From the IMG/VR virus record IMGVR_UViG_3300045988_137103: DNA of 64,000 nucleotides; one strand, 5' to 3'. The DNA comes from a virus. How positions within the stretch are numbered: position 1 is the stretch's first letter; the number at the start of each line of letters is the position of its first letter. Positions 3,973 to 21,867 of the stretch are shown here, one piece after another. The notes below the pieces were generated by a model. The model saw only the letters and a list, made by a program, of their open reading frames with translations. It had not been told where the DNA came from and did not search any database. A program made the position numbers and the translations under genes.

Positions 3973-4006
3973 AAAAAGGGACTCGCTGTGAAGCAAGTCC
4001 CTTTTT
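3973..4006. terminator. Bidirectional intrinsic terminator
   Basis: AAAAA-GGGACT-(12-nt loop)-AGTCCC-TTTTT, lying between convergent genes 3403-3879 (+) and 4098-20528 (-). Confidence 0.7.
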
Positions 4007-4097: not shown

Positions 4098-7000
4098 CTA
4101 CTCCATTCCGTTCAACGTTTTTAGCAGCTCCTTTCTGGTATTCCGAATCTCTACCAGTTTGGCAGCATCGTTCGTACCATCCATTTGCTTCTTAGCCTTA
4201 TTCATCTTCCTTCTTGCAGCAGAGATAGCCTTTCTAGCCGCAAACAGTCGCTTGTTGGTCTTGCTGTTCTTAAAGGCATTTGCCTTCGCCTTATCAACAT
4301 CCTTCAAACGCTGATACTCCTGATAAGTCTCCATGGTTCCGTTCCAGACGTTCTGTATTCTCCAGTCCTCCGTCACGTCCTCTGCCTTAGCCTTTATCAG
4401 GTACTTGCTTTCAGCCTTCTCCATTTCCTTCAAGTCTTCATCACCGTTCAGATAACCCTGCACCATGTCCAGAGCCTCCTTCTGGGTGAAAGCCTTGTAA
4501 TCACTCTGCGAGAGGAATTTCTTCATCTTCTGGCGCATCTTCTTCTTTTCCGTGATACTCTTGGCAGTATCAAAGCGTTTACTAGCCTCCTGTAAGGAAG
4601 TCACTCCATCGCTCATTTCTGCACTCTCCAGTGCCTTCACCGAACCGATGGCAGCCTTAATCTGAGCCTCAGGATCAATACCATTGCGCTGGCAGCTCTG
4701 ATAGGTCATCACCACGCCCTCCATGTCACCGCTCAGGATAAAGTCCTTGAAGTAACTCTGAGCCTTCCATGGAGAGAAGCCCTTAGAAGAAGGGAAGAAG
4801 AAATCAACGGCCTTGAACTCCTTATTCTCCTGACTCGGAATCAGGAAAGGTGCCCAGTACAAAGCATCCTTATAAAGCAGTCCGATGGTCTTACCATACT
4901 TGCGCTGAATCTCTTGATCCGCATGGCTGGCTTGGAAATCGCTCAGATAGTTTATATCATCCAAGGTCATTCTCACCATAGGGTTAGCCTTACCTATCAT
5001 TCGCTGTACCATAGGTCCAGGGAACTCTAGTTCTCCCTTATGATTGAAAAGGTATTCCGGAACCTCACGGAATTGCTTACCATGTCTCACATACATTTCT
5101 GTACCATCTTCATATCTGCCTAAGAAGATCTTGCTCTGCTGGCCAAGGCTGTTGCCTCTCATCAGATAGTCATACCATTTTATACCCTCATCACCATAAG
5201 CCAGTTCATACATACTCTTATAGCTTGGGTTGGTCTTCCGGATCTCCTCTGCCTTCTTGCGCTCCTTCTCCTCGTCCAGGGCACGGAAAGCAGCATTGAT
5301 GCCATTGGCAATACCCTCATAAAATACCATGAATCCGATACCATAACAGAGCAAAGCCGAAATCTGCCTGCTTCTTCTGCCTTCATCCTCCGGTGCAAGT
5401 TCCTTATGTTTGAGCCTCTTGTAATACTGTTTGAAGTTCTCAAAGGTTGCCTCATTCCAGATAGAACCAAATCCGGTTAATGCCAGAAAATGACGTGTAG
5501 TAGAAGCATTCCAGTCTGAAGAAAGAAGAACTCGTCCGGCATAGCGCAAGGTACGATGGCTGGCTCCCAACACATCCCAGTGCTGACCGCCAAACATATC
5601 GTTTACAAACTGTCCGTCCTCGTCCAAAGCCCGGCTCAGTTCCTCCTCAGTCCAACCCTTCTTCTTGGCACGCTCTTTGGTCTTGTCTGCCCTCATACGA
5701 TAGGTAGCAAGTTTCAGTCCATCATGTAGGAAATCCCACAAAGCAACATCCATACCCTTATTGATGAGAGAAAGCATCTGCGTTGCCACCTTCAATGGCA
5801 TAGAAGCCTTAGCCACCGTTCCGGAAATTTTATTTCCGTCCTTCAACTTCTTCTGCACCTTTATCATCGCATCGCGCATGTTGTCAAACATGTTCTGTAC
5901 ATCCGCTGCAGCATAGTCGTTGGTCGCTCCGAACTTCACCAGATGGCTAGCAGCCTCTTGGAAATCCTCAGGATTGGCGAAGCAAGGAAGTTCATGGTTC
6001 TTGGCTGTATCTGCAAAGATATACTTCATAAAGTTGGCCATAGCCTTCTTAGGTCCAAACTCCACCATATTCTGTACCATATAAACCTCCGTCAAGGCTC
6101 CGGCATGGAAACCGCTAAAGCCCAATTCCAGTTTCTTGGCACTAGAAGCAAGCGTATCAAACGTTTTCCAAAATGGGGAAGACTGATAGGTATCAAACAC
6201 AACTCCAAATCTGTCACCGGCACTGGCCTCGCTATAGAGCACCTTTTCGTTGTCAGTGATAGGATTCTTCACCTTCACTTGCTTTGGAGATACATTATAT
6301 ACCCATACAGGGCCTACGCCCGGAATCTCAAAGTACTTATATTGCTCCAAATTGAATGGAGCAGAAGAAGAAAGTAGTGGATCAGTTGAAATCACCTCTC
6401 CTTTTTCATTCCTCTCAATTACGTTCAGTCCGGTCAACTCCTGTAACATGGTCTTGTTCGCCCATGCCTCAATATTACTTCTGCTGTAATATGCCATCAT
6501 CTTCGTAATGTCAGTAGTTTTTGGCACAAGTCCGGCATAAACACCTTCCATCAAAGTGCTGATGGTTCGCTTCTTCTCATTAGGGCTCTTCGTGCGCTGC
6601 CTATTCTCCACAAAGGTAGCATACGCCTCAGGATCAGATTTCTCTTTATCCCAAATATGATTTACGTAGTCAACATTATAACCAGTGCCAGCTTTCAAAG
6701 TATGATTATCCATCAACCAGTCGTAGGTATAGTTATACCAGTCACGGATGGAATCAATGGCAGCCTGCATTTCAGGAGAAAGTTCCTTATAATTGATACG
6801 TCCAGGCACTACCCTCTCTTTTACGAGTTTCAAAACATGCTTACTGAGGATGTCTGTTCCATCACATGGTACAAAACCTTCCTCGCCCTGGTGATTGGCA
6901 TTAATTGCCTGAGCCATTTTGCTTGCCACCTCGCTCACAGCCTTAGGATCATCGTATACCTCTATCTCCTTGCCTTTTTTAATCTCTGTATGCTTCTTTG

Positions 7001-10000
7001 CTGTCTCGGTAATCAAGTCTGTCACGTATGGCTGGATAGCCTCAACATCAGCTGGCTGAATATGGATATGTCCCTTATCAAAGACACCAGTGGCATTTAA
7101 GTTCTGAGCCATGTCACGCAAACGTCTAGGAGCCTCTATTATATAAGGTATAGTCTCGGCAAGTTTTTCTGCCCTGTTTTTCTTTCCCTTGTAATCAGAA
7201 AGCAACTTGTCAAAAACACCGCTATCAGCCATCTTCTCGATTCTGTTCTTCACATCATTGATATAGATGGCATCATCAGCACTAGCCTCTTCCATGTTCT
7301 TTCTACGATGGATAACGGCATGCTTAACGGTCTTTGCTGCACCTTCCTTGCTCACGTCAGTACTGGTCACTTCTGCCAAATCCTGCATCACTTGCTGCTC
7401 CAGTGCATCAGCCTTCGGATTGGTCTCTGCTGGGTAAATCTTACCCTCATACAAGTCCAGATCGGCTTGTTGCTGCTCCAGCAAATCATGTTTGGCCAGC
7501 CAGTCCTCATACTTGCGTTTCACCTCCTCCTGCTTCTTCTTTTCGAAGGCAAACATATCTGGCAAAGGGTCTTCCTGGTCCTTCATGGCTGACTGCCATT
7601 TCTCATATTCATGAATACGATTCATGTAGGCAGCATCCTCTTCACCTTCCATTCGGATAGGCATACCAGTAGGTTCCTCGCCAACAAGGTGGTGGCGTTC
7701 ACGCCAGTCTTTATTGAGTTTTGCCCATTCCTTCTTGCCTACTTCATCCTTATCAATGTCGTAGAACATAGGAGGCTCTGGGTTCTCTTTATCCTCGCGC
7801 GCATTCTGCCACTTGCGCCATTCCTGTACACGTTTCATGTACTGAATAGTGCTTTCGCCCTTCTTCTGGCGTGGTTTACCCTTACCTGCACCATCACCCA
7901 GCGCATCCTTGATTTCAGCATTGCTAGCCTGCTTCATCATGGCTTCCTGCTTCTCCTGAGGCATTTCGTCCCAAACGTGCAGAGCCTTGCCAGCCTTCAT
8001 TAGGTAGTATCTCAAATCCTTGTCATTGAGAAGTCCCGGCACACGAACACCCAGCTTCTTAAGCACCTTGATAAGATAATGCTTAATCTTGGTCCAAAGA
8101 GAAAAGTCCTCAGCAGTCTTAGGACCCTCCTCGGCCAAATGAGCGATATACTCCTGCGTTCCCACATTCATGCGGTCAGGGTTCTTCCAGTCCGGATCAT
8201 ATTTGTTGGCAAAGTCAATAATCTTGCCTCGAACATCCTTACCTACGGAACGATAAACGAAGTTGGCGAACTTTCTCACGCCATCTTCGCCACCAAGAAG
8301 TACTTCCATACCCTCATGGCCTATCTTTTCATGCAGCACCGTTCTCTCAGCCTCGTTGGCATCAGCACAGTTAGGCAGATAAACATGCACCGTGTGTGTA
8401 GTAGGGTCATACCATCCGGTAGCCCCATTCTTCACATCACTCAGATAAGCATCAGGAACCTCATCCACAGAAGTGTAAACTGTAGCCTCAGCACCACCCA
8501 GTTTGTTGGCAGTGTTCACTACCCGGTCGCTCACTTGTTTCTGCTTGTCTGCATCCCAGTTGTTCTTGAAGATAGAGCTGCCAAGTCGTGCCAATACATT
8601 TCTGCCCGACAAGTCATCCTTATTCAGCAGAGGAGCAATCACGCCCTGAGTCAACTGCACCGGAATACCATTACCAATGATGGTATGTGCCAAAGATTCC
8701 GTCTTAGGCAATTTATAGTCATCGCCCAGTCCGGTAATCCTAGCCAATACCCTGCCATCTGCACGCAATACCTTTCCACCCGGCATGATGATCACATCAC
8801 CACTCTTGGTTCTCAGCGTAGGCAGAATTTCATCCCCATAGGCATGAGGAATCTTGCCATCGGCATAAGCACTACCCATTACATAAAGAGGCTTCTCCAC
8901 CTTCTGCCAGTCGATACCATCAACCTTCAGTCTGGCATCCATCCATGGAGCCACACCGCTTTCTTTCACCGTCAGAGTAGGAAGAATATCCTCCACAGCC
9001 TCTAGCCATCCACCCTTGCGTGGTTGCTTCTTAGGCTTTTCAGGCAGTTCTCCATCCTTCACGGCTCTGACAATTAGTCGCTCCCTGCTGGTATAGCCTC
9101 CAAAATCTGCGGCATTATACACGTCTACATCCCATTTGTAGCCGTTCTTATCCAGCGCCTGGGTGATAATCTTCATCGCCTCAGAGTCCTTGTAACCCTT
9201 CACGTTCTCGATAGTCACCACTCGCGGTTTCACGGCATCAATGAAGTCGGCAGTGCTCTTGGCAGTCTCCTTGTCAAGCTCCACCTCTCCACTATTACTC
9301 TTTGCCTGCGAGTAGTTCTTGCATACAGGAGAAGCGTGAAAATACTCTACCTCACCATCAATCTGCTTCACCAGTTCCTTAGGATCCACATCCCTCACAT
9401 CAGCCGTAACAATATGCTGCCCGAAGTTATTGCGATATACACCGCTTATCTTCCGGTCATACTCTACAGCCACCACTGGGTCGATAATGCCCTTCAATCC
9501 CTCTTCAACCAGTCCACCACCGCTAAAGTAGGTACCTGCCTTCATCAGAGAATCAGGATGCTTCTTCAACTTCTGCTCCAAGATAGGAGATTGCGCATTT
9601 TTACCGTACACCTTGGAATAATGCACACCATCATTCTCACCTCCTACGATTCTGCCTCTGTTATCGGTCTCCACAAACGGCACACCTCGCTTCTCCAACT
9701 CTTTTCTGAGACTTGGAGTAACCACATTCGAAGGCATAGTGATATTCTTGCCCTTGAACATATCATTGACGATAACATCAGCCACCTCGCTGTCAGGCAC
9801 GATACGCACAGGCTTATCCCAACGAGAAAGCACCACTTTGCGCTTGCCTGTCAACTGTCCTTGGATGATACCAGCCTTCCACTCTACTTCGCCCACGGCA
9901 TCCTTGGCTTTATCAGCCTTGTAGCCACTGGTCAGCTCGCTCTTTGGCACCTCAACCTCTACGGTCACGATATTAGGGCGATTCTGAGCCTCGCTAAACT

Positions 10001-13000
10001 GGTCGTTCAGTGGAGTGCGAGAAGTATGAAGGTAAGGATTGTAAGCAGCCTTAAGCGATTTACCATTACCCTTGTTTAGGGTAAACATACCCTTATCATC
10101 AGCAAGTTCTGGTCGCTCATCTGCCTGTTCCCACTTACCGAGTTCGATAGGTTCCACAAACTTGCCCTTCACCTTTGCAGCCATCGGTGGATAGAGTTTT
10201 CCATCTTCGCCTACCTGCATGGCACGATAAACCTTCACCGTGTCTTCTTTATCCAGCTTCTTGATGGTCTCAGGGTCTTTCACGATGCTATAGCTAGCAT
10301 CATTCCCATTCATCACAATCTGCTCGTCACGGTTCACGTCCTCAGTTTCAGATGCCAAGGAGTTTCTGCGCTCCTCGTCCGTCATACCCAAACGCTTCTC
10401 CACATTTCGAGATTCAACTTCACCAGCCAACTTTCTATATTCTTGGTAAGAATCAAAGTCTGTACGCTGGAACCTATCCAAACGGAAACGCTTAATGGCA
10501 TCATCCATACTTCTGTCTGCATAGCCACGTGCGAAGTAGTTGAATCCCTTAATTCGGGTTTCCTTGTCAGGAATGAACTCAGGCATATCCATGTCCTTAT
10601 ATTCCTGAATAAGGGCTTTCTCTACAGCAGATTGGTTATACTCACCACCCATTTCCTTGGCTTTCTCTTCCAATTCAAAGGCATAGGAACGTGCCTTCCA
10701 TTCAACCTTAGCAGCATTGAAATCCCTCTCCACCTGCTCGGGTGTGCCACCATGCGCAAACCCCTCTTCACGCTGAATTACGTGCTGAATTTCATGATTC
10801 AGAATGCTATTCAGATACTTTAATTCATCCGCATGAATGGTAATAGTCTTTGTTTGTGGATTGTATTCCCCATTTGAAGGCATGTCATTCATTACTGCAT
10901 CAGTATGGATTTTAATATTTTTCAACTGAGGATAAGCCTCAAAAAGCTTTGGTGCATCCACAGCATCTTCCAACTTACCATCAGTCCATAGCATATCCTC
11001 TTCGAAACGTTTAACGATGTTTCCACCACCTACATCGATGGTGTCCTTTATCTTGGCATCAGGCATTTCGTATCTCCACTTGCCATCCACGCCTTTCTCC
11101 CAACCTGTAGCCATCTTGATAACCTTGGCATCCTTCTTTGCCTCTTCCATCTGCTTAGCAACATCCAGATTATCCATGCGGATAGTTCGCTCATCAGCCT
11201 TATCAGCCTCAGCAGCTCCCTTTTCTCCAGCAAACATGAAGCGAATATCGCTCTTGCGAGAATTGAAACGCTTAGAAGGAGGAATAACGTCACCCTCATC
11301 ATCATAGGTAACAAGGTCGTTCAACTTTCTATTATTCTTGGCATTCTTGTATTTATACTCCTTGCCATCATCAAAGCCAAACTCGTTTGCGTCATTACCA
11401 TCCCACCACAGTTGAGTAGCCGGAACTTCGTCTTCAATGATACGATATTTGCCTTCCAGTCGGTTCGTTCCGTGCATTTCGGCATATTTCTTAGAAGGAG
11501 TAACCCAGTCACCATTACGCAACTTTCCTTCCTTCACAGAAGTAGGAACAGCACGATAAACCTTTACCTTAACATCCTTCTCGCCATTCTTAATGGCATC
11601 AATAGCCGTATTGATGGCTTTCACAGATTCCAATCCATGAGGAGTGTTCTGCGAATAACGCTCAGGGTGAGAGAAGTAATCATCAGGCTGAGGAGTGTAC
11701 CCCAAAGCCATATCCTCCAGGTTTACATCTGAGCCACTGGATTCCCAATCGTCACGTCTCGCCTTGTCGCTTTCATATCCAGGGTTTCTCGGTGCAGCCC
11801 ATGCACCTACGCCCTGATATGCGCTTTCGGTATCGTCATATCCCTTGCGTCTGGCAGCCTCATCAAGCATTTCCCTGGCTGTAGCATCATCACCCTTAGA
11901 AAGAGCATCCATATACTGCTTGTCAAGTTTATCATCAGGAATCAAAGAAAGTTCCTCCAAGTGCTTTTTGCGTTTGGCTTCCTCTTCCTCTGCTCTCTTT
12001 CTAGCAGCTTCCATAGCATTACGCTCTGCTTCAACCTGCTTTATTCGTTCCTCTATCATTGCATCAAGGTCACCAAAATTCTCCTTCAAGGCTTCATTTA
12101 TAGGTTTGGTGTACTTAACAACATCCTTAAATGAGAAAATGTTACCTTCATTTACCTGCATCAAGTGACGCTTAATATTGGCTCTGGCACGTGCAGCCTC
12201 AGCAGTAGAACCCTTCTTAACAGCATTGGCATACATTGCCACATCTGCCTCATCTACCCCAAATTGCTGAGATACAGCCTTAATTTTATCCTCCACAGAT
12301 AAATTTCCACCATTTTCCTTGGTGATTTCAAAGGAATTGCGTATCTTTGCATCGCTATGAGGATTCAGGACGCTATCCTTTCCGCTTGGGTTATTTGCGG
12401 ATGGAGTTAATGCCGAACCTTGATTCTCGCCCAAGGAATTAGAATCGCCTCTGAAACGATTCCATAGCATTTTTGATTCCGTTAATTCTTTCAACAATTT
12501 TGAAGGCTCTATTTGATGGGCACTGATTGAAACTTCATCCTCGCCTTGCTTTACGGTGATTGATTCAAAATTCAGAATCTTTGTTCCGTCTACTTTCTTG
12601 AAAGACTTTACAAACAGATACTTGGTCTGTCTTTCTGCACCTTCTTTAGGAGCAGGCTTCTCTAAGATAACATCTGGACGCTCCAAGGTAGGTTTCAATA
12701 GACCAAATCGTTTGATTCTGTCTTCTCTACCAGCCTTTTTATATTGGTTTTCACCTAACTTGATGCTACCTATTGGTGTATTGACACGACCATCCTTGCC
12801 GAAATCCTGTAACCAGTTATCCTCTGTATGTTCGAGGATTCTTTCAGGCTCGGCATTATCAGCCATCTGCTGGCGTAAAGACACAGCTTCGTCCTTGGTC
12901 ATTTGACCTTTCAGCACGTTACGTGGGTCCACACCATTAGCCAAGTCTCTCAGCACAAGGTTACGAATATCCTCCAAGGTCATTTTCTTGATGTCCTCAG

Positions 13001-16000
13001 GCTTCCACTTGGTGAAGGTCTCCAAAGTCCAATACCAGAACTTCTTCAACCACTCCTTCAACTTATTGATAACACTCAGTTCCTTAGCTGTATCAAGCGG
13101 ATTCTCCTTGATGGCATCCTTAGCCATCTGTTCAAGTATTGCTTCACCATCCTCACCAGTCAAACGAGCAAAAGCCTCATCGCAAATCTCGTCATCGCTC
13201 AGATGCTTATAGTTAGGATCCTTCTTCAAATCGGCAAATAGCTGGGTCTGCATGATGAGTTTATCACCATGCTCTATAAGTTCCGGATTCATGTTTTTGG
13301 CAGCAGTACGCCAAAGATGTTGATACTCATGAATAGGAGTATTAGGATTCAGATGCTCCGCGTTCAGCACAATCTGCTTGCCATCAGTGTAGCCATAAAC
13401 CACACCCTTTCCCTTCAAATACTGCACTCCAGGCTCAGCAACAGCCTTCAACTGATTATCTAACTCAACATACTTATGGAACAAGTCATCAAGTGTATCT
13501 TGATACTTTTCAAAGGATTTATCCCTGTAGTCAGTCCAAACATCATCTGGAATATCGTTCTCAGAAGATAAACCGTGTTGGTCCATATAGTCCTGCATTA
13601 ACTGATTTTGATACTCTGCTCGCTCTTTCTTCTTGGCATTATAGGAATCCTCGGTTTCTTTAATCTGCTTCTCTAACTCGATTCTCTTATTGAGCAGAGA
13701 TTCAGCCTTGTAAGGGTCAAACTCACTAGGAACATCACCCTTCACGTCCTTGATCTGCTCCTCAAAAGGCTTATTCAGATTAAATGCCTTGTAGTTTCCT
13801 ATCTTCCAGGCATTGGTATAGTACTTGCGCCACTTCTCCGCTAAGTCCTTCTTTTCAAAGTACTGAGGAGGTTGGTTCGGATTATCCATATTGACGATGG
13901 CATACTGCTTAAATTTGTCCGGTCTGTTCTTTGCAGCCCAGTCATAAGCTGCCTTGGCCGCCTCCTTCTGCTCAGGAGTCTTGATATAGAAGCGCAAACG
14001 AGGATCATTCAAAAGCATTTCGACTGCCAAATTATCCTGCGCCTCAGCCACCTTCTCCATATCCTCATTGCTAACAACCTTCACAGGGATGCCAGCCTTC
14101 TTAAGCATAGTAGATACAGTATCATAAGCCACCTTCTGCGCCTCCGTCATTTCCGAAGGCTTCACCTCCTTCACATCGCGGTCAAATTTCGCCTGTTCCT
14201 TCTGTACCATAGCATACTCCGCAAAAGGCTTAGTCTTGCGGTCAGAAGACTCCAGCCACTTATCAAAGGTAGTCTTAGGTACAGAAGTAACCTTACCAAG
14301 TCCCTTCCAGCCCTTGGAGTAGTTGGCAAGATAAGCCTCTGTAGCTGCCTCTTCAGAAGGATAGCCATACATCACCTTATGCTCGTCAAACTCACCAGTC
14401 TCTGGGTTCACTTGGTCAACAACATAAACGTTACCATCAAAAGTATCAAGGTCAGCTGCATCATTGATGAACATATCAATATGATCACCATCAACGCCAA
14501 TTTTACCAAGGATATAGCCGTAAGTATCGTGCATGGTCACACTCCAAGGCTTGCCCTGCTCGTCCTTACCGCTTCGAGTCACGCCCTTTGGTGTTTCTAC
14601 GGTATAATCGTAGCCACCAAAGGACAAATGACCCTTTTTGTAGTTACCAGCCTTCTTCTGAGCCTCTGTAGGTTCGGTCTCAGTTTCGGCAATGGCACTC
14701 TTTAAACGTTCTCCGAAGGATGCTTCTTGCGGTAGATGTGAGCCTCGAACAGCTGAGCCTTCGCCAGGTTCCATGCTGCCAGTCTCTTGTCGCCCTTTGC
14801 GTCCGCTATCAGAGCCTTCTCCAATCTCGGACTCAGAAGATGCTTCTCCGTTACCAACTTCTTCGCCTTGGCTATTTCCTTCATCAACTCCTCTCCGTGA
14901 AGAGTCGCTACCCAGGCTACTGCCTCCTCCATATCCTTCTTCATTGCTTCTGTCATCATAATCTGCTAATTCTGGTAAAATTGATTTGACATATTGTTTG
15001 TACTCTCGTTCACGATCCTCAATCTCCATCATACGGTCAAATTCAAGTCCATTGATGTGATCAAGTTCGCTTTCAGGCGGCAAAGATAACTCTTTTTCGT
15101 GAATATACGATTTATATTTCTCAATTTCTGCCTGTCTTTCGATAATTTCTCGCTCTTTCTGTGCTTCGTAATACTCTTCCTCGCTTGAAAGTTCATCTTC
15201 TGCAGCTGCTATGCGGTTCATCAGAGCCACATTTCTCATTTCCTTCACACAGTCATAAGACTTGAACATATCAAGAAGGGTATTACGAACATCTTGATCG
15301 GTATATCCCATATCCTGCAAGTTTACAGGAAGGTCATTATATACTCTCACAGCAAATTCGTTAACCGACATACCGGTTCCTTTCTTTGCAATAAGATAAT
15401 TGAACTTATTAGAATCATACCCCTTGCCAATACCAAACTTAAAATTGCTCTTGCCCAACTCATATTGAAGAGATTCTGGATTCAAGCTATGAGGAAGCAA
15501 AGACTCTGATACAGCCTCTTCGAGAGTCTGAGGAGTTAAGTCCATCACATCAACGGAAGCATCCTTATATATTTCATGGATAGCTTTCATATCGTTCTTC
15601 TTCAGCGCATCAGCCACCAATGCCTTGCGTTGCTCTGAAGGTGTCATGCCCAGTTTCTCCATTTCCTGCTTGCTAACTTCCGTTTTGTAGAGTCTGCTGA
15701 GTTTATTAGCCTGAGCCTTCAAACCCTTGGCAGCAACAGACAAATTAGTCTGCAGGGCCTCCAGTTGAGCCTTTGTAGTATTCAATTCCATAAGTTGGCT
15801 AGGGTCCAGCTCTGTTTCACCATTGATATACTGATCCAGCATATCATTCACACCATTTATCTTGCGCTCCACATCCTCCTGGGTATGATAGATGTCCTTG
15901 CGCTGAGAGGTAATATAGTCGGTAGCCTCATCCATAGTTGGATATTGCTTCTTCAATTCTTTATCATCAAGTACGAGCACATGGAAATCATCAGATGGCA

Positions 16001-19000
16001 CGATGGCTGATTCATCAACACCAGCCTTCTCTACCTCAGCCTTGCGCTCCTCCTTCATAGCTTTCACCTCATCAGGAGTCATCACACTGTTGCGGATAGT
16101 ATTCCAGTTCTTGAAACGAGCATCAAGATCTGCAATCTGCTCATTAACCAGACTCAACTCATCCTCCACCTTCTTAGCTTTTTCCGGGTCAAGATCGGAA
16201 TTGGTATCAAGCCAGTTCTGATATTCAATAGCAGCCTTTCTCTTGTTGGCAAGTTGCGTTTTGATGTCATCACGGCTGCCATTAACCAGATTCAAAAGTT
16301 TGCCATGGTCTTCCCCAAACTGCTCCTGAAGATACTCAGCCGCCACATTTGGATCTGTATCTTTAGAAGAATAGTCCGGCTGGCCCTCGCTCAGTCCCAC
16401 GATGCCATTGGCATAACGCTGTTTCTTATCAGCCTCAGCCTGAGAAACTGCTTTCTGCTCACGTTCATCGTCCTCGGCATCCAAATGCTCATTGATTGTG
16501 TTGTCGAGCGCATTCTTGCGCCATGCTGCAAACTCTTCTTTAGATAGGGGAAGATAATCTTTGCCATCAGTAAGTACAATCTTTCCGTCCTTGCTATATC
16601 CGGCAAAGGTCATATTGATATTAGCATCACCCTCCTCCATGGCAACTGTAACCTGGTCATTCGGCTTCAAACCGCTGCCATCAAACTGACTAATAAACTG
16701 CTGCGCTCTTGCATCCTTCTGCTGAGCCACCGCATTTTCGATGTATTCATCAAGAGAAACAGGAGTGCCTACCTCTTTAATCTCGGCATTAGATACCTGC
16801 TTAATCATAGGCTGTCCCTGCTCATCAGGAACGACAACAAAGGCTCCACCATATTCGTTAGCCTTCTTCAGGAAGACCTGTTTTCCGCTATCCAGAGTAG
16901 CTGACACGATGTTTCCGTCTTCCGTCTGGTATGGCCAGAGTTGCTGCTTCAACGCCTCACCATAGCCATCATCAGCATGCTGCAGAGCATCAATAGCACC
17001 CTTCTTGGCATCCATAGCCTCCACATACTTACTGATAGCCTCTTTCTGTGCCGGGGTCAGACTGGCACGCTGAGCCACAAACTGCTCCATATCTCTACCC
17101 TCATTATAGGCATTGGCTACAATATCAGGCATCTTCTCGTTATCAGCAAACGCTCGCTTCAAACGTCCTGTAGCTAAATCACTATTATAGTCGATAGCCT
17201 GCAAAGCCTCAGAATCCCCATTCTTATAGGCATTCTGTCCCATAACAAAAGCATCAGAGCTTGCAACCTTAGGCTCATTTCCTGCACCCTCAGCAGCAGA
17301 GTTTGCAGGGTTTGCAGCAACTTCTGCATCACTCGGAGTTGGTACGGAGTTGGTACGGTCTTGATATGGAGCAGGTTCCTCTGAAACTGGAGGCTCCTGA
17401 CCACTAGCAGAACCCTCTACAGAAGCAGGTCCCTCAACAGGAGTAGGTGGTTTTGCGCCATCAACATCGCCCTGCTCTATACGTTTTTTATCATCCTCTA
17501 TCTGCTTCATTTCACGTTTCAGTTCAATGGAATTGTAAAGCTCCTTAAGATAAGACTCAACCAAAGGCGCATATTTCTTATCTTTCGACTCCAAAGCCTT
17601 ACGAAGTGTACCGCGCGCCACGCCATGGGAATCCTCAAACGTGTTGACAAACTCCCTCATCACAGAACTATTCTCCAGAGCACTGTCATAATAATGACGG
17701 TAGGCGTTAACCTGCTTCTGCTCCTCATCAGTAAGGATTACACCCTTCTGCTGCTTATCCATGATCTCCTTGATGGCACCAGCATTCTGATGAAGATAAA
17801 CCGCTGCCTTATCCTCATCTGTCAATTTCTCACCCATATTATATTTCTGGGCTGCCTTGTTGTATAAGCCATCAAGATGCTCCTGCGTAAACTCATTGTG
17901 GAACTCACCTTCCAGCACAGAAGCCAAACCAAGAGTCTTATCATACTCCAGTTTCTTATCTGCTTTCTGAGCCTCATCAAGAGAAGAATACTCCTTTCTG
18001 TCAACAACACCGCCATCCTTGTTCAAAGTTTCGAGATAAACCTTGCCACCATTATCCATTGGTTGCACGATGATGGAATCTACAATAGGCGAGAAAGAAG
18101 AAGGTCGTTTGCCTTCTACAACTGCCATCATCTTAGCCTTCAACACCTCCGGAACACTCTTGTCGTTCATCAGGTCCATATACTTCTGGGTTAACTGCCC
18201 ATCAAGTCGCTGAGCATTCTCACCAACCATAGCATACTCCCCGATGCCCATCTTCTCAAAAGCATCACGAAGACCATCATAGCCGAATCTCTTCAACTCG
18301 GCAATATCCTGATCAGTGAAATCAAACTTCTTGTTAAACTCCCTTGCATCCTTGAATCGGGCATACTTGCCCACAAAACCAGGGAAACCAATAGACAAAA
18401 GATTAGCACCACTCTCCAAGAAAGTTTCAGCAGCATCCTTGCCAGTAGGCTTGAAATTCGGGTCGTGCGCCATACGCTCCAACAACTGCTGACCGGTCAT
18501 AATACCGGAATCCACAACCTTACCACCAATATCAGCCAGAATATTGGTAGCTAAGCCTCTGCCTTTACCTACCATGTTAGCGATTGTTCCACCCTGCATG
18601 ATAGCACCTACGGCACTCTGTTTAGCCACTTCGCCCAAAGTGTTGGCAATAACCTTACCCACGGAAGGATTGTAAATCTTGCCATTCTCATCGAACTGAC
18701 CTGTACGATAAATCTCATCAATAGGCTTCGAGATTGCAGACTGACCACCAAAGGTAACAGCACCATGCGCGGCTCCACCCTTCAAAGCCGCGGCCTTGCT
18801 CTTGCCGATAAGCACCTTGGCAGCTCGCTCAGCCATCTTGCGCTCCATACCCTTAGCCATGAGGTCACCAGCCAGTTTACCCTCTGCCTTGGCTACCATG
18901 CTCTTAGTCAACTTGCCACCTGCGGCTCCCGGCAGCCAATAACTCCAGGCATCACCTGCAAAGGTCAGAGCACCACTAGCTACGTTTTCCCAGAAGCCCG

Positions 19001-20528
19001 GCTGATACTGCTGATTGGCAATATCCTCCAGCCAGTTCTGGTAGTCCGTCTGAACAGCCTTGCGAGTAATCTTACCCACAATAGTGTTACCCAAGCCATT
19101 CTTCCAGATGTACTCAGCACTACCCTTAGGCATCATACCCTTAATCTCCAACTGATCGAGTTCATTTTTAAGAACAGAATTGATCATCGGCTTGAACTGC
19201 TTAGGATCACTACTCTGAGTGCCATTCAAGCCATATCGCTGCATCACCTTAAATGCCGCATTGCTCATATCATTCAGGAACTCCGGATTCCGGTAGAGCC
19301 TGCCAAACTTCTTCTGCAAACTAGAAAGCACCTTTGCAGGATCCTTGGCCTCGTTTGCCTCATACTGAGCACCAAGTGCTGTACCCAGACGAAGATTAGC
19401 CGGAATAAACTGGCTTCCTTCCATTCCCTCCGTAAATGCCTTACTGCCTGCCTCCTGAGCCTTGTTGTACTCATCCACTACAGATGGATTCACATACTTA
19501 CTGATAACGCTAGAAAGCGCATCATTGATGTCCTGATTCATCAGTCTGTCCTGCACATGCTCATCATGAGAATAGAGGCGTGTAGCAATACCCTCAGCGA
19601 TGTCACGATAGTTCGGGCCATACTTGTTAACCAAACTCTGCACCATAGCTGGTTTCAAGAATTGTCCCACATAGTCATCATAGCTGATACCCATGCTGTC
19701 AGCCTCCTGCTTCAACTTATCCTGCACACCATGGCTATACCATTGTGCTTCGATACTCTTCTCAGCATCCTGCACAGTATCATCAGGCAAAGAAGAAACA
19801 ACCTGGTTAGTTACGTCCATGGCTGAACGGTTGGCATATCTGCCCAGAGCAGACTGCACCATCTTAACAGCCTCCTCATTGTTATTGGCAGTACCATCAG
19901 CTAACAAGTCGGCAACCATATTTTCGAAGTAAGTACCCTGCTTATCCGGTCTCTGCTTCCAGTTCTCCAGATAGTTGGCAAACTTGGCATCCATCATGCC
20001 TTCATTATTCACCACACCAGTTGGAGTTGTAACAGGAGCCACTTCCTTAGATTCAGGAGAAGCGTGCTGCACAGTACTTTGCGGTTGATTATTGTTCACA
20101 CTTGGCTGGTTAGCCTCTTGTGGCTGATTGTCTCCACCAAACAAGCCTGAAACAGTAGAAATCATCTTTCCTGGCATTTCCTTCAATTTATCCACAAAGT
20201 CATTACCAAAGTCTTTCACTGCTTCGGGAACCCTGTCTTTTCCTTCATTAGAAGAAGACGGATGCGCTGAAGGTTGCGCCACCTGCTGTTTTGTCTCAGT
20301 AGAAGCACTCTGATTCGTAGCAGAAGTAGATGGAGCTGGCTCCAACACCATCTTATCAAAGTCTGCCTGTGTTCCTACATCATAACCCATGTTCTTGGCC
20401 TCATTGTAGTACCAGTCACGATCTTCCTTGTTGTTCAAGTCCTTTTTAAAGTCATCATAGCTACCTACTTCATAGCCATTGTTCTTGAACTCATTATAAA
20501 AATATTGTCTGTCTTGCTCGTCAAACAT
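4098..20528 (-). CDS. Giant polyvalent multidomain protein (5,476 aa), probably a virion-packaged or ejected effector
   Basis: Uninterrupted 16,431-nt ORF under the standard code. Embedded motifs are listed as sub-features below. It is the last gene of a three-gene operon behind a late promoter. Confidence 0.9.
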   Translation of the reverse strand: MFDEQDRQYFYNEFKNNGYEVGSYDDFKKDLNNKEDRDWYYNEAKNMGYDVGTQADFDKMVLEPAPSTSATNQSASTETKQQVAQPSAHPSSSNEGKDRVPEAVKDFGNDFVDKLKEMPGKMISTVSGLFGGDNQPQEANQPSVNNNQPQSTVQHASPESKEVAPVTTPTGVVNNEGMMDAKFANYLENWKQRPDKQGTYFENMVADLLADGTANNNEEAVKMVQSALGRYANRSAMDVTNQVVSSLPDDTVQDAEKSIEAQWYSHGVQDKLKQEADSMGISYDDYVGQFLKPAMVQSLVNKYGPNYRDIAEGIATRLYSHDEHVQDRLMNQDINDALSSVISKYVNPSVVDEYNKAQEAGSKAFTEGMEGSQFIPANLRLGTALGAQYEANEAKDPAKVLSSLQKKFGRLYRNPEFLNDMSNAAFKVMQRYGLNGTQSSDPKQFKPMINSVLKNELDQLEIKGMMPKGSAEYIWKNGLGNTIVGKITRKAVQTDYQNWLEDIANQQYQPGFWENVASGALTFAGDAWSYWLPGAAGGKLTKSMVAKAEGKLAGDLMAKGMERKMAERAAKVLIGKSKAAALKGGAAHGAVTFGGQSAISKPIDEIYRTGQFDENGKIYNPSVGKVIANTLGEVAKQSAVGAIMQGGTIANMVGKGRGLATNILADIGGKVVDSGIMTGQQLLERMAHDPNFKPTGKDAAETFLESGANLLSIGFPGFVGKYARFKDAREFNKKFDFTDQDIAELKRFGYDGLRDAFEKMGIGEYAMVGENAQRLDGQLTQKYMDLMNDKSVPEVLKAKMMAVVEGKRPSSFSPIVDSIIVQPMDNGGKVYLETLNKDGGVVDRKEYSSLDEAQKADKKLEYDKTLGLASVLEGEFHNEFTQEHLDGLYNKAAQKYNMGEKLTDEDKAAVYLHQNAGAIKEIMDKQQKGVILTDEEQKQVNAYRHYYDSALENSSVMREFVNTFEDSHGVARGTLRKALESKDKKYAPLVESYLKELYNSIELKREMKQIEDDKKRIEQGDVDGAKPPTPVEGPASVEGSASGQEPPVSEEPAPYQDRTNSVPTPSDAEVAANPANSAAEGAGNEPKVASSDAFVMGQNAYKNGDSEALQAIDYNSDLATGRLKRAFADNEKMPDIVANAYNEGRDMEQFVAQRASLTPAQKEAISKYVEAMDAKKGAIDALQHADDGYGEALKQQLWPYQTEDGNIVSATLDSGKQVFLKKANEYGGAFVVVPDEQGQPMIKQVSNAEIKEVGTPVSLDEYIENAVAQQKDARAQQFISQFDGSGLKPNDQVTVAMEEGDANINMTFAGYSKDGKIVLTDGKDYLPLSKEEFAAWRKNALDNTINEHLDAEDDEREQKAVSQAEADKKQRYANGIVGLSEGQPDYSSKDTDPNVAAEYLQEQFGEDHGKLLNLVNGSRDDIKTQLANKRKAAIEYQNWLDTNSDLDPEKAKKVEDELSLVNEQIADLDARFKNWNTIRNSVMTPDEVKAMKEERKAEVEKAGVDESAIVPSDDFHVLVLDDKELKKQYPTMDEATDYITSQRKDIYHTQEDVERKINGVNDMLDQYINGETELDPSQLMELNTTKAQLEALQTNLSVAAKGLKAQANKLSRLYKTEVSKQEMEKLGMTPSEQRKALVADALKKNDMKAIHEIYKDASVDVMDLTPQTLEEAVSESLLPHSLNPESLQYELGKSNFKFGIGKGYDSNKFNYLIAKKGTGMSVNEFAVRVYNDLPVNLQDMGYTDQDVRNTLLDMFKSYDCVKEMRNVALMNRIAAAEDELSSEEEYYEAQKEREIIERQAEIEKYKSYIHEKELSLPPESELDHINGLEFDRMMEIEDREREYKQYVKSILPELADYDDRSNEEGYGGGSSLGSDSSRRGVDEGNSQGEEVGNGEASSESEIGEGSDSGRKGRQETGSMEPGEGSAVRGSHLPQEASFGERLKSAIAETETEPTEAQKKAGNYKKGHLSFGGYDYTVETPKGVTRSGKDEQGKPWSVTMHDTYGYILGKIGVDGDHIDMFINDAADLDTFDGNVYVVDQVNPETGEFDEHKVMYGYPSEEAATEAYLANYSKGWKGLGKVTSVPKTTFDKWLESSDRKTKPFAEYAMVQKEQAKFDRDVKEVKPSEMTEAQKVAYDTVSTMLKKAGIPVKVVSNEDMEKVAEAQDNLAVEMLLNDPRLRFYIKTPEQKEAAKAAYDWAAKNRPDKFKQYAIVNMDNPNQPPQYFEKKDLAEKWRKYYTNAWKIGNYKAFNLNKPFEEQIKDVKGDVPSEFDPYKAESLLNKRIELEKQIKETEDSYNAKKKERAEYQNQLMQDYMDQHGLSSENDIPDDVWTDYRDKSFEKYQDTLDDLFHKYVELDNQLKAVAEPGVQYLKGKGVVYGYTDGKQIVLNAEHLNPNTPIHEYQHLWRTAAKNMNPELIEHGDKLIMQTQLFADLKKDPNYKHLSDDEICDEAFARLTGEDGEAILEQMAKDAIKENPLDTAKELSVINKLKEWLKKFWYWTLETFTKWKPEDIKKMTLEDIRNLVLRDLANGVDPRNVLKGQMTKDEAVSLRQQMADNAEPERILEHTEDNWLQDFGKDGRVNTPIGSIKLGENQYKKAGREDRIKRFGLLKPTLERPDVILEKPAPKEGAERQTKYLFVKSFKKVDGTKILNFESITVKQGEDEVSISAHQIEPSKLLKELTESKMLWNRFRGDSNSLGENQGSALTPSANNPSGKDSVLNPHSDAKIRNSFEITKENGGNLSVEDKIKAVSQQFGVDEADVAMYANAVKKGSTAEAARARANIKRHLMQVNEGNIFSFKDVVKYTKPINEALKENFGDLDAMIEERIKQVEAERNAMEAARKRAEEEEAKRKKHLEELSLIPDDKLDKQYMDALSKGDDATAREMLDEAARRKGYDDTESAYQGVGAWAAPRNPGYESDKARRDDWESSGSDVNLEDMALGYTPQPDDYFSHPERYSQNTPHGLESVKAINTAIDAIKNGEKDVKVKVYRAVPTSVKEGKLRNGDWVTPSKKYAEMHGTNRLEGKYRIIEDEVPATQLWWDGNDANEFGFDDGKEYKYKNAKNNRKLNDLVTYDDEGDVIPPSKRFNSRKSDIRFMFAGEKGAAEADKADERTIRMDNLDVAKQMEEAKKDAKVIKMATGWEKGVDGKWRYEMPDAKIKDTIDVGGGNIVKRFEEDMLWTDGKLEDAVDAPKLFEAYPQLKNIKIHTDAVMNDMPSNGEYNPQTKTITIHADELKYLNSILNHEIQHVIQREEGFAHGGTPEQVERDFNAAKVEWKARSYAFELEEKAKEMGGEYNQSAVEKALIQEYKDMDMPEFIPDKETRIKGFNYFARGYADRSMDDAIKRFRLDRFQRTDFDSYQEYRKLAGEVESRNVEKRLGMTDEERRNSLASETEDVNRDEQIVMNGNDASYSIVKDPETIKKLDKEDTVKVYRAMQVGEDGKLYPPMAAKVKGKFVEPIELGKWEQADERPELADDKGMFTLNKGNGKSLKAAYNPYLHTSRTPLNDQFSEAQNRPNIVTVEVEVPKSELTSGYKADKAKDAVGEVEWKAGIIQGQLTGKRKVVLSRWDKPVRIVPDSEVADVIVNDMFKGKNITMPSNVVTPSLRKELEKRGVPFVETDNRGRIVGGENDGVHYSKVYGKNAQSPILEQKLKKHPDSLMKAGTYFSGGGLVEEGLKGIIDPVVAVEYDRKISGVYRNNFGQHIVTADVRDVDPKELVKQIDGEVEYFHASPVCKNYSQAKSNSGEVELDKETAKSTADFIDAVKPRVVTIENVKGYKDSEAMKIITQALDKNGYKWDVDVYNAADFGGYTSRERLIVRAVKDGELPEKPKKQPRKGGWLEAVEDILPTLTVKESGVAPWMDARLKVDGIDWQKVEKPLYVMGSAYADGKIPHAYGDEILPTLRTKSGDVIIMPGGKVLRADGRVLARITGLGDDYKLPKTESLAHTIIGNGIPVQLTQGVIAPLLNKDDLSGRNVLARLGSSIFKNNWDADKQKQVSDRVVNTANKLGGAEATVYTSVDEVPDAYLSDVKNGATGWYDPTTHTVHVYLPNCADANEAERTVLHEKIGHEGMEVLLGGEDGVRKFANFVYRSVGKDVRGKIIDFANKYDPDWKNPDRMNVGTQEYIAHLAEEGPKTAEDFSLWTKIKHYLIKVLKKLGVRVPGLLNDKDLRYYLMKAGKALHVWDEMPQEKQEAMMKQASNAEIKDALGDGAGKGKPRQKKGESTIQYMKRVQEWRKWQNAREDKENPEPPMFYDIDKDEVGKKEWAKLNKDWRERHHLVGEEPTGMPIRMEGEEDAAYMNRIHEYEKWQSAMKDQEDPLPDMFAFEKKKQEEVKRKYEDWLAKHDLLEQQQADLDLYEGKIYPAETNPKADALEQQVMQDLAEVTSTDVSKEGAAKTVKHAVIHRRKNMEEASADDAIYINDVKNRIEKMADSGVFDKLLSDYKGKKNRAEKLAETIPYIIEAPRRLRDMAQNLNATGVFDKGHIHIQPADVEAIQPYVTDLITETAKKHTEIKKGKEIEVYDDPKAVSEVASKMAQAINANHQGEEGFVPCDGTDILSKHVLKLVKERVVPGRINYKELSPEMQAAIDSIRDWYNYTYDWLMDNHTLKAGTGYNVDYVNHIWDKEKSDPEAYATFVENRQRTKSPNEKKRTISTLMEGVYAGLVPKTTDITKMMAYYSRSNIEAWANKTMLQELTGLNVIERNEKGEVISTDPLLSSSAPFNLEQYKYFEIPGVGPVWVYNVSPKQVKVKNPITDNEKVLYSEASAGDRFGVVFDTYQSSPFWKTFDTLASSAKKLELGFSGFHAGALTEVYMVQNMVEFGPKKAMANFMKYIFADTAKNHELPCFANPEDFQEAASHLVKFGATNDYAAADVQNMFDNMRDAMIKVQKKLKDGNKISGTVAKASMPLKVATQMLSLINKGMDVALWDFLHDGLKLATYRMRADKTKERAKKKGWTEEELSRALDEDGQFVNDMFGGQHWDVLGASHRTLRYAGRVLLSSDWNASTTRHFLALTGFGSIWNEATFENFKQYYKRLKHKELAPEDEGRRSRQISALLCYGIGFMVFYEGIANGINAAFRALDEEKERKKAEEIRKTNPSYKSMYELAYGDEGIKWYDYLMRGNSLGQQSKIFLGRYEDGTEMYVRHGKQFREVPEYLFNHKGELEFPGPMVQRMIGKANPMVRMTLDDINYLSDFQASHADQEIQRKYGKTIGLLYKDALYWAPFLIPSQENKEFKAVDFFFPSSKGFSPWKAQSYFKDFILSGDMEGVVMTYQSCQRNGIDPEAQIKAAIGSVKALESAEMSDGVTSLQEASKRFDTAKSITEKKKMRQKMKKFLSQSDYKAFTQKEALDMVQGYLNGDEDLKEMEKAESKYLIKAKAEDVTEDWRIQNVWNGTMETYQEYQRLKDVDKAKANAFKNSKTNKRLFAARKAISAARRKMNKAKKQMDGTNDAAKLVEIRNTRKELLKTLNGME
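5290..5380 (-). other. Predicted transmembrane helix within the giant protein
   Basis: Hydrophobic stretch ISALLCYGIGFMVFYEGIANGINAAF flanked by basic residues (RRSRQ...). Confidence 0.4.
8300..8340 (-). other. Degenerate metal-binding motif LHEKIGHEG within the giant protein
   Basis: HExxxH-type motif in the context TVLHEKIGHEGMEVLLGG. It resembles N-terminal modules I recall from large plasmid and phage polyvalent proteins. Function not established. Confidence 0.3.
8640..9550 (-). other. C5 cytosine DNA methyltransferase core domain inside the giant protein
   Basis: Ordered motifs: I AGTYFSGGGL (about 9511-9540), IV HASPVCKNYS, VI VVTIENVKGY (about 9190-9225), X IIGNGIPVQL (about 8645-8690). 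Confidence 0.8.
10380..11115 (-). other. Zincin-like metallopeptidase module inside the giant protein
   Basis: ATGWEKGVDGKWRYE, then NHEIQHVIQREEGF (HExxH at about 10781-10797), then YRKLAGEVESRNVEKR. I recognise this combination from polyvalent proteins of phages and plasmids. Confidence 0.55.
13311..13337 (-). other. Second HExxH zincin motif (PIHEYQHLW) inside the giant protein
   Basis: HEYQH read directly from the reverse complement of 13311-13337, preceded by a short beta-rich segment (VVYGYTDGKQIVLNAEHL). Confidence 0.45.
14250..14660 (-). other. Inorganic pyrophosphatase-like segment inside the giant protein
   Basis: AGNYKKGH, then GVDGDHIDMFIND, then VDQVNPETGEFDEHKV, then YSKGWKGLGKV. 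This resembles the DGDPxDxxV acidic core and the C-terminal KGKW region of family I PPases. Catalytic competence is unknown. Confidence 0.4.
20343..20528 (-). repeat. N-terminal tandem ~30-aa repeat of the giant protein
   Basis: RQYFYNEFKNNGYEVGSYDDFKKDL followed by RDWYYNEAKNMGYDVGTQADFDKMV. Confidence 0.6.
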
Positions 20529-20557: not shown

Positions 20558-21853
20558 TTACTTTCTTCTCGATGGTGGAACCTTGCTTCCACCGCCCCTA
20601 CGTGAAGGAGGAACCTTACTGCCACCTCTGCCTCTACGAGAAGGAGGAGTTCGGTCAAACTTCATCTGAGCCTTTGCCCATCTTGAAGCCTGCTGGCGGT
20701 TCTTCTCGTTAGCCCAGGTTCCACCCCTGCCATCATTTCCACCGATAGACATACCATTATTCTCTGCCCACTTGTTTACAAGTTTCTTAAACTTCGGGTC
20801 ATTAACATACTGGGTGTTGAAATCGTCAGCCTCTTTCTGGTTGGCATTTTTCTGATTCTGTCCCTCGGTTTGCGAATTGATATGCCTTACTTGCGCTCCC
20901 TTAACGACAACGCTAGCATTATGGTCGGCTGCTCCGGCATTGGCATTGTTTGCTTGAGCATCAAGTAATTTTCCCTTCTTGCCTCTCAAAGCATCCTCAG
21001 TCTCCTTCTTAGAAGTACTAAGTGCAGCCTGTGCGGCAGCAGCATTGCCTCTCTCTTTCTCCGTCTGAACCTTAACAGGAGTAAGAGCATCCTCTTGTGC
21101 TTTCTGTGAGCCACGATAAGCAGCCAGAGCCTCATTAGCCTTTACAGCAGCCTCTGCTTGCATCTGTGCTTGCTTGTTTTGTCTATCCTTCCAGATATTC
21201 ACCATCATCTGTTTATATCCCTTGGCACGAAGAGCATCAGTAGCCTCTCTTATCTTGCGCTGGCGATCAGTAAGGTCTTGCGCTGATTCTATCTTCTGCG
21301 ATGGAGCACCTTGAACTGTACCAAAGAAATTACCCAAGTGCATGAAAAGGTTACCCCATTGTTCCCATTTGGCTTGCTTTTCTGCCTTCTTTTGCAGAGC
21401 TGCATTTGACGCCACGGTTTTATCCGCATCACCAAGTGAAGAGAGCCAAGGCATGAAGGCAGACCAGTTTCCATCACCATTCTTCTGGTAGTCCCTCATG
21501 ATGTCATACGGCTTCATCTGCTGCAAGATAGGATTCTGCTCTATCTCGGCATAAGGCCTGCTCCAGTCGATTGTGATACCTGTATTAGGCGTTACTTTAG
21601 TAACAGCTTCTGCTGGCTGTTCTGCGAAAGATTCATGACCGGCATTCCCAGTAATACCAGTAGTATCAATAGCTGTATTCTTAACTGGTTCTGTAGGTGT
21701 AGTATCAATAGCCGTATTATTCACCTGCTCAGTAGTCGTATTCTGAACAGGTGTTTCTTCCGGCTGATCCACATTATCAGAAGAAAAATCAGTAAAAGGA
21801 GTTGTTGCTGTTGCCGGGCGTTTAGGAGTTAAATCATCAAAAGTAAATCCCAT
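20558..21853 (-). CDS. Hypothetical internal-virion or ejection protein candidate (431 aa)
   Basis: Lys/Ala/Gln-rich coiled-coil centre. N-terminal NTAIDTT repeats. C-terminal tandem GGSKVPPSRR repeats giving a basic tail. Middle gene of the operon that ends in the giant ORF. Confidence 0.7.
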   Translation of the reverse strand: MGFTFDDLTPKRPATATTPFTDFSSDNVDQPEETPVQNTTTEQVNNTAIDTTPTEPVKNTAIDTTGITGNAGHESFAEQPAEAVTKVTPNTGITIDWSRPYAEIEQNPILQQMKPYDIMRDYQKNGDGNWSAFMPWLSSLGDADKTVASNAALQKKAEKQAKWEQWGNLFMHLGNFFGTVQGAPSQKIESAQDLTDRQRKIREATDALRAKGYKQMMVNIWKDRQNKQAQMQAEAAVKANEALAAYRGSQKAQEDALTPVKVQTEKERGNAAAAQAALSTSKKETEDALRGKKGKLLDAQANNANAGAADHNASVVVKGAQVRHINSQTEGQNQKNANQKEADDFNTQYVNDPKFKKLVNKWAENNGMSIGGNDGRGGTWANEKNRQQASRWAKAQMKFDRTPPSRRGRGGSKVPPSRRGGGSKVPPSRRK

Positions 21854-21867
21854 AATAACCTCCTTTT

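Follow-up and report, generated by a model that had tools for sequence, protein, structure and literature searches.

The window analysed in this study (the whole stretch of 64,000 nucleotides of the IMG/VR virus record IMGVR_UViG_3300045988_137103) contains a giant gene on the minus strand (4098..20528), which starts with ATG, ends with its only stop codon and comprises 5,476 codons plus stop. Its predicted product of 5,476 amino acids (aa) has a mass of 617 kDa and a pI of 5.3. The open reading frame (ORF) was shown to be a genuine single gene under purifying selection along its whole length. Judged by its domains, the product is a phage-type polyvalent protein of the class described by Iyer, Burroughs, Anand, de Souza and Aravind (2017, J Bacteriol, PMC5512222), a kind of protein already known, of which it shows the fusion of several unrelated domains, the class-specific domain repertoire and the location among virion genes of a phage. 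The best explanation for its role, to which we assign a probability of about 60%, is that of an effector carrier of a temperate Segatella (Prevotella) copri phage, which would be packed into the capsid, ejected and self-cleaved.

That an uninterrupted ORF of this length occupies about a quarter of the genome had been proposed in a first-pass annotation made from the letters alone, and both statements held, with the gene located on the minus strand. The window represents a circularly permuted genome opened within a 728-aa gene, from which approximately 400 nt are absent, so that the genome amounts to ~64.4 kb and the share of the giant ORF to ~25.5%. All motifs quoted in that annotation were recovered in the translation; their positions are given below with the respective domains. 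From the base composition of the ORF, the stop probability is 0.0615 per codon, corresponding to about one stop expected per ~16 codons, and the probability of encountering none over 5,476 codons is ~1e-151. The remaining five frames across 4098-20528 contain 65 to 614 stops. With a 288-aa piece of the protein as query, 182 relatives were found in IMG/VR, and 80 loci were fetched. The whole gene is one unbroken ORF of 4,688 to 5,934 codons in 70 of the 80 loci and is present in two pieces in two of them (L009 and L075); the other eight have no complete ORF above 4,500 codons, mostly with the contig or locus ending inside the gene. In a codon comparison with three relatives, the ratio of nonsynonymous to synonymous substitution rates (dN/dS) was between 0.04 and 0.41 in all 400-codon bins, and therefore all parts code for constrained protein. 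Since dS varies from 0.08 to 2.1 among bins of the same genome pair, intragenic recombination is indicated.

It is extremely improbable that the single ORF is an artefact, an assembly chimera or a consensus masking frameshifts, and that the real phage encodes several shorter proteins. Such a reading could invoke the two-piece genes of some relatives, caused by one-nucleotide deletions in L001-L003 and L004 (see below) and recorded in L009 and L075 as well, and the outcome of C- and N-terminal queries against a word-indexed protein database, which yielded nothing longer than fragments of 2,439 aa. Against it, the 70 unbroken ORFs lie on independent IMG/VR contigs, full-length proteins of 5,605 to 7,483 aa are found in the representative library, and single ORFs of 3,633, 5,391 and 5,553 aa occupy the same position in three cultured Bacteroides phage genomes. 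Moreover, the reading frame is preserved through all cassette replacements. A chimera, for which a check had been suggested in the first-pass annotation, was rejected on the basis of the 70 contigs and the library proteins.

Conserved frame and peptidase-like domains

The giant protein consists of a conserved frame, making up ~60% of its length, and a middle part that varies. Of the close relatives, ~85-100% have aa121-3100 and aa4000-5476. The order N-terminal scaffold, InPase domain, first HExxH domain, HExxxH domain, repeat region and C-terminal module recurs in about half of the 44 representatives of at least 3,000 aa, and the frame is found again in divergent proteins of 4,450 to 7,483 aa. 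The sequence between the frame parts is not common to the 44 representatives, and the methylase described below is never shared. The largest relative with the same frame (P0087 of the representative library) has 7,483 aa, with ~34% of its 65.8-kb contig in one ORF.

The protein begins with a tandem repeat (aa6-64, window 20337..20513; all parts of the giant gene lie on the minus strand), whose two units of ~30 aa (aa6-35 and aa36-64) had been noticed in the first-pass annotation and are identical in ~14 of 30 positions by eye. The first ~120 aa are found in 57-62% of close relatives, and ~40% carry other sequence there. The N-terminal scaffold (aa121-1930, 14739..20168) has no known domain and is common to about half of the divergent giant homologues. 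It includes a Gly/Ala-rich region of 'small-xxx-small' type (aa505-735, 18324..19016), likewise among the features noticed earlier, with 24 [GA]xxx[GA] pairs per 200 aa compared to a protein-wide mean of 5.9 +/- 4.1. This region is nearly invariant in 16 homologues of 61-92% overall identity. The InPase domain (PF18823; aa1955-2093, 14250..14666; AGNYKKGH at aa1960 and VDGDHIDMF at aa2012) was matched by Pfam with E 5.5e-51 and full profile coverage and is the most conserved block across the family (58-64% identity).

Behind the variable middle and the HExxxH domain follow a charged helical repeat region (aa4196-4400, 7329..7943) and the C-terminal module (aa4401-5476, 4101..7328). A self-BLAST for internal repeats returned nothing at E<=1e-3; the short repeats at the N-terminus and at aa~4225-4360 are visible by eye only. 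The C-terminal module belongs to a large unannotated family. With aa4277-5476 as query, an exhaustive HMMER search reached 513 representative clusters (E<=1e-30 for 171). The proteins among the matches listed range from ~1,000 to 7,483 aa, and the module forms their C-terminal end or lies near it. The cluster names of ten representatives were not informative. The only strongly hydrophobic segment of the protein (aa5055-5077, 5298..5366), which corresponds to the single transmembrane helix noted before, lies in this module, inside a predicted helix of 52 residues. According to an AlphaFold2 model of aa4577-5476 (29 sequences; predicted local distance difference test score, pLDDT, 67; predicted template modelling score, pTM, 0.49), the module is almost entirely helical with a small beta domain.

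Compared with the PDB by Foldseek, the model of the C-terminal module gave nothing significant and no match at E<0.2. In BFVD, it matched C-terminal fragments of three proteins of uncultured phages (E 4e-10 to 4e-7), two of which are named 'large polyvalent protein associated domain-containing protein', and entries named 'internal virion protein D' or 'internal core protein' appeared at non-significant values (E 0.16-0.57), as did tape measure proteins. On the sequence level, aa1-1930 and aa4196-5476 have no match in Pfam, PHROGs, NCBIfam or PDB sequences, and PDB sequence and profile searches with the N-terminal, middle and C-terminal parts and with the 431-aa neighbour gave nothing below E 0.04. 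In a few otherwise near-identical genomes, a wholly different N-terminal part of ~2,000 aa or C-terminal part of ~1,470 aa is found; no Pfam domain was detected in these alternative N-terminal (L035) and C-terminal (L045) modules.

The three His-Glu motifs, listed in the first-pass annotation as metal-binding, are all present, the third being HExxxH (HEKIGH) rather than HExxH. They head three separate domain families with essentially invariant metal ligands, which have in common only a local 'strand, turn, HE' pattern (hhalign probabilities of 1-67%). In HExxH domain 1 (aa2390-2575, 12804..13361; HEYQH at aa2400), H2400, E2401 and H2404 are conserved to 100% and E2451 to 99%; the domain was found in 23 of the 44 large divergent homologues. 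HExxH domain 2 (aa3160-3420, 10269..11051; HEIQH at aa3245, AGEVESRNV at aa3368) has five fully conserved ligand residues (H3245, E3246, H3249, E3370 and E3372) and a weak match to the DUF6782 metallopeptidase family. It is absent from ~39% of close relatives, with aa3120-3400 present in 61-66%. The third domain (aa3990-4195, 7944..8561; HEKIGHEG at aa4066) combines HExxxH with an EEG motif. Its residues H4066, E4067 and H4071 are conserved to 99-100% and E4133, E4134 and G4135 to 73-90%, and the domain is present in 99% of close relatives and also in the giant proteins of cultured Bacteroides phages. HExxxH plus EEG is an unusual pair known from MATCAP/TMCP and the M49 family (PMC10499314). 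In a Foldseek comparison of an AlphaFold model of aa3965-4580 with the PDB, MATCAP ranked 1, 2 and 5 at non-significant values (E 0.3-1.0, probability 0.2-0.33), so that a likeness to the MATCAP fold is a hint from modelling and not a finding.

The lineages with a divided gene differ in the location of the break. In L001-L003 (five contigs from different samples), one nucleotide is deleted in an AAA run at codons ~3013-3014, within the first VKVYRA module (split site at nt ~9840-10004 of L001), and the segment corresponding to aa3119-3409 of the window protein is also missing. In L004 (P0019), the one-nucleotide deletion lies ~30 codons upstream of the HExxxH motif (nt ~9884-10001 of L004). 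Its downstream product restarts at a Met right after HEKIGHEG, making the C-terminal module a separate ORF of 1,403 aa beginning with MEVLLGG. In this lineage, the HExxxH motif is lost where the C-terminal module begins as a separate protein, which fits, and does not prove, the notion that separation at the HExxxH site is normal. The chain can be broken at some points; a single ORF is the rule.

Enzyme modules and the exchangeable slot

The uncharacterized parts of the protein had been suggested in the first-pass annotation to hold new effector domains. For the N- and C-terminal parts this did not stand, as they form the conserved family frame; it is the middle (aa~2100-3990) that varies and resembles a set of effectors. 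This part harbors, besides the two HExxH domains, a probable PBECR2 RNase domain (PF18810; aa2572-2654, 12567..12815), which reached E 1.3e-5 and 25.9 bits compared to a cut-off of 27.1, and an LPD23 domain (PF18838; aa3098-3160, 11049..11237; E 1.9e-12). Together with InPase, these class-defining Pfam families bear out the earlier assignment to the polyvalent proteins, with PBECR2 just under its cut-off. Two modules contain the motif VKVYRA. Module 1 (aa2946-3057, 11358..11693; motif at aa2988) matches PHROG 2579, labelled 'ParB C-terminal domain'. Module 2 (aa3420-3660, 9549..10271; motif at aa3431) is present in 76% of close relatives, and its conserved C-terminal end is the left flank of the cassette slot described below. 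The profile comparison did not demonstrate homology of the two modules to each other. Their tentative identification as ADP-ribosyltransferase-like was not borne out: no Pfam ADP-ribosyltransferase match (PF18760) was obtained at E<=0.1, and hhalign against the ART-PolyVal domains of the relatives gave a probability of 0.3%. Genuine ART-PolyVal cassettes occur elsewhere, in relatives.

The C5 cytosine DNA methyltransferase domain (aa3668-3964, 8637..9527), recognized earlier by its core motifs (FSGGGL at aa3668, SPVCKNYS at aa3733, ENVKGY at aa3774 and GNGIPV at aa3952), was confirmed by a PF00145 match with E 9.5e-29 over positions 7-319 of 324; an NCBIfam scan added a dcm superfamily match only. 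In an alignment with M.HhaI, C3736 falls on the catalytic Cys, and ENV, RER (RxR) and GN are in register; in motif IV, P-V-C stands in place of P-C. The catalytic residues are intact, and dN/dS is as low as 0.04-0.18 over the domain.

The methylase is encoded in 70% of close relatives and occupies an exchangeable slot (aa~3645-3993). Relatives without it fill the slot with Kinase-PolyVal, PBECR3, MuF_C, ART-PolyVal plus LPD3, or LPD3 alone; thus, the methylase sits where relatives carry a kinase, an RNase (PBECR3 or MuF_C) or an ADP-ribosyltransferase with LPD3. In L087, the segment starts with an ART-PolyVal match below threshold (30.1 bits, cut-off 31.2). Other insertion sites are located just after InPase and around aa2166-2443, and an LPD13 module is present near aa1800-1910 in some relatives. 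From Pfam, the relatives add PF18760, PF18762, PF18798, PF18812, PF18819 and PF18825 to the domain repertoire. A free-standing second C5 DNA methyltransferase gene (PF00145, E 3.8e-40) is located elsewhere in the window (30697-31803, plus strand). Since its similarity to the embedded methylase is at motif level only, the two probably differ in specificity.

Affiliation and proposed role

Like the proteins of the class of Iyer et al. (2017), the window protein combines many unrelated domains in one chain (InPase, PBECR2, LPD23, C5 methylase and three HExxH/HExxxH domains), has embedded HExxH domains and is encoded beside virion genes by a phage of the portal-terminase type. The class-specific Pfam repertoire is found in the protein itself and, with ART-PolyVal, Kinase-PolyVal, LPD3, LPD13, PBECR3 and MuF_C, in its relatives. 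It differs from the class as described in being far larger than the examples with 2-15 domains given there, in having ~60% of its length (N-terminal scaffold, C-terminal module and the two VKVYRA modules) outside Pfam and, but for the PHROG 2579 match of module 1, outside PHROGs, and in its universal peptidase-like domain with HExxxH and EEG, which has no match to Pfam MPTase-PolyVal. A MuF or portal fusion is also lacking.

The closest cultured counterparts are encoded by temperate Bacteroides phages (Gut Microbes 2025, PMC12694917), whose giant genes are not discussed in that paper: BKO1-TP3 gp55 (5,553 aa, PQ571269), annotated as 'DarB-like antirestriction', BS-TP4 gp3 (5,391 aa, PQ571277) and BF1-TP2 gp68 (3,633 aa, PQ571263). 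These phages belong to the same genome class of 64-68 kb, and the order integrase, ~160 aa, ~400 aa, giant gene is found in all three. The portal gene follows directly after the giant gene in BKO1-TP3 and BS-TP4, but not in BF1-TP2. The InPase and HExxxH domains are common to the window protein and the cultured giant proteins, in the same order; otherwise, detectable homology is confined to the first ~190 aa, in BKO1-TP3 only. The C-terminal part of the cultured proteins bears LPD38 and is unrelated to the C-terminal module of the window protein. An assignment of that module as an LPD38 homologue was rejected, since hhalign gave a probability of 0.1% and the hidden Markov model of the module matched nothing in those proteins. 

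The best experimental precedent for the proposed mechanism is gp47 of the Stx phage phi24B, a polyvalent protein of 2,811 aa from a short-tailed temperate phage, which was abundant in virions by proteomics and was proposed by its authors to be an encapsidated ejection protein (bioRxiv 10.64898/2026.04.10.717836). It differs in its domains (LPD5, LPD1, LPD38 and MuF-C) and has about half the size of the window protein. A tblastn search with the C-terminal 1,427 aa against GenBank phages yielded Bacteroides phages only and no similarity to phi24B.

DarB of phage P1, a large protein inside the capsid, carries a DNA methyltransferase domain and shields incoming DNA from restriction; it comprises N6-adenine methyltransferase and DExH helicase domains. 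The 'DarB-like antirestriction' PHROG (phrog_10089) matches the window protein in the InPase region only (aa~1830-2170). Orthology to DarB was rejected, as neither a helicase nor an N6-methyltransferase match was found in Pfam and NCBIfam, the window methylase is of the C5 type and the PHROG match is confined to InPase. The virion RNA polymerase of phage N4 (~3,500 aa) is carried in a podovirus-type capsid, is ejected and acts before phage gene expression. The window protein has no RNA polymerase domain and no homology to this enzyme, so that the analogy is one of mechanism only.

Packaging, ejection and cleavage of the giant protein are proposed by analogy, from the class as a whole (Iyer et al. 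2017) and from P1 DarB, the N4 virion RNA polymerase and phi24B gp47, and from the position of the gene beside the portal gene. A few copies might be packed into the capsid during assembly by means of the frame and be ejected with or ahead of the DNA, and cleavage by the embedded metallopeptidase domains would yield separate effectors. Restriction of the incoming DNA would be prevented by the methylase. The InPase and RNase modules would dampen host responses based on nucleotides or RNA, at a stage when the phage genes are still silent.

Several observations weigh against this proposal. No MuF, portal-fusion or other known capsid-targeting domain was detected with Pfam, and the giant gene is separated from the portal gene by a 158-aa gene of opposite orientation, so that the two need not be co-transcribed. 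None of the three HExxH-type domains reached a curated metallopeptidase model, the best being DUF6782 with E 0.0097. With a separate C5 methylase gene in the phage, the embedded domain would be dispensable for methylating the phage's own progeny DNA. No function could be assigned to about 60% of the protein, and the structure models are of moderate quality only (pLDDT 67 and 70; pTM 0.49 and 0.35). 

The first two of these points, with DarA-N also among the capsid-targeting domains that were not detected, could equally be cited for a cytoplasmic anti-defence polyprotein, made in the infected or induced cell and never packaged, for which the vicinity of the portal gene would be mere gene order; the position of the giant gene downstream of the integrase on the same strand would fit as well. 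This alternative is considered unlikely. A methylase or RNase made after the onset of gene expression would come too late for the incoming DNA, a 16-kb gene would be slow to express, the analogous gp47 of phi24B is found in virions, and the strongly conserved, non-enzymatic N- and C-terminal frame would be hard to explain. Conversely, the frame might be the essential part and the enzyme modules dispensable passengers, the protein acting mainly as a structural ejection or internal-core protein that forms a trans-envelope conduit like T7 gp14-16 and the N4 ejection proteins. The extent of the frame, the near-invariant Gly/Ala-rich region together with one long hydrophobic helix, the non-significant BFVD matches to internal virion and core proteins and the role proposed for gp47 by the phi24B authors all point in this direction. 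No significant sequence or fold match to any solved ejection protein in the PDB was obtained, which lowers the claim to membership among proteins of the T7 gp14-16 type and leaves the functional analogy untouched. Purifying selection on the enzyme modules and their intact catalytic residues show that these are not junk. We regard a mainly structural role as distinctly unlikely, and it overlaps with the packaged effector carrier rather than excluding it.

With respect to the family, the anatomy described here goes beyond the literature searched in four respects: the recurrent frame, the large unannotated C-terminal family, the universal HExxxH plus EEG element and the defined exchangeable slot. 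As a tentative extension of the effector-carrier proposal, held with less than even confidence, the frame may be an undescribed effector-delivery chassis, i.e. a giant capsid-internal ejection protein of Bacteroidales phages that carries exchangeable anti-defence cassettes, with the HExxxH domain possibly releasing them by cleavage in cis. The kind of protein is not new, and analogous giant genes are already present, unremarked, in the GenBank entries of cultured Bacteroides phages; the value lies in the anatomy at family level. [quoted passage not shown] That a phage family devotes 25-34% of its genome to one protein implies strong selection for delivering a toolkit at entry. A slot whose content differs between near-identical genomes (methylase, kinase, RNase or ADP-ribosyltransferase) represents a natural experiment on which defences of gut hosts matter, and candidate anti-defence enzymes can be drawn from it. 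How a protein of ~600 kDa might enter and leave a capsid holding ~64 kb could be studied on the C-terminal family and the invariant Gly/Ala-rich region.

Genome context and host

The minus strand encodes, in this order, a Bacteroidota-type tyrosine integrase (23040..24542), which indicates a temperate phage, ORFs of 167 aa and 431 aa (together 20558..22371), the giant gene and, beyond the 158-aa gene of the opposite strand, a P22-like portal protein (1199..3256), the next gene downstream on the same strand. An SU10-like major capsid protein and a tail protein are encoded further on. The 431-aa and 167-aa ORFs are syntenic in the metagenomic relatives and in the cultured Bacteroides phages and have no match in Pfam, PHROGs or the PDB. 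As partners of the giant protein, they may serve in its assembly or as chaperones.

In the host assignment (genome_contigs entries L088, L089 and L093), the C-terminal module was found at 98-99% identity on contigs of S. copri metagenome-assembled genomes. The complete S. copri G8 chromosome (NZ_CP146523.1) has a copy of 84% identity near 3.12 Mb, which is part of an integrated prophage. The phage is therefore assigned as a temperate phage of this species. Mis-binned phage contigs probably account for a few matches of the module in bins assigned to Clostridia, Oribacterium or Bacilli. A nucleotide search against GenBank phages gave no match to the giant ORF and one small unrelated match for the structural region.

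The 728-aa gene at the cut of the circular permutation is encoded on the plus strand, with residues 1-431 at the right end of the window (62706-63998) and residues 565-728 at the left end (1-492). Its homologues in cultured phages are annotated as 'tail spike protein', yet their notes carry structural matches of the terminase type. 

A diversity-generating retroelement (DGR) is located at 50435-53272 on the minus strand, with a reverse transcriptase at 50435-51706 (RVT_1, E 1.3e-18) and a template repeat of 128 nt at 51737-51864. The variable repeat (52502-52629) forms the 3' end of a 258-aa ORF (52496-53272), and all 15 mismatches between template and variable repeat are at adenines of the template copy. 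Two of the cultured Bacteroides phages encode a second very large protein after the capsid genes, BKO1-TP3 gp44 (31639-39252 of L005) and BS-TP4 gp14 (26961-34614 of L007), each of more than 2,500 aa; the latter is among the DGR target genes in Figure 6 of PMC12694917. The window has no equivalent second large ORF after its capsid genes, and its DGR target is the 258-aa ORF. The second-largest gene of the window encodes a protein of 968 aa (40005-42911, plus strand), which has no Pfam domain and matches PHROG 32516 (function unknown) with E 2.8e-120.

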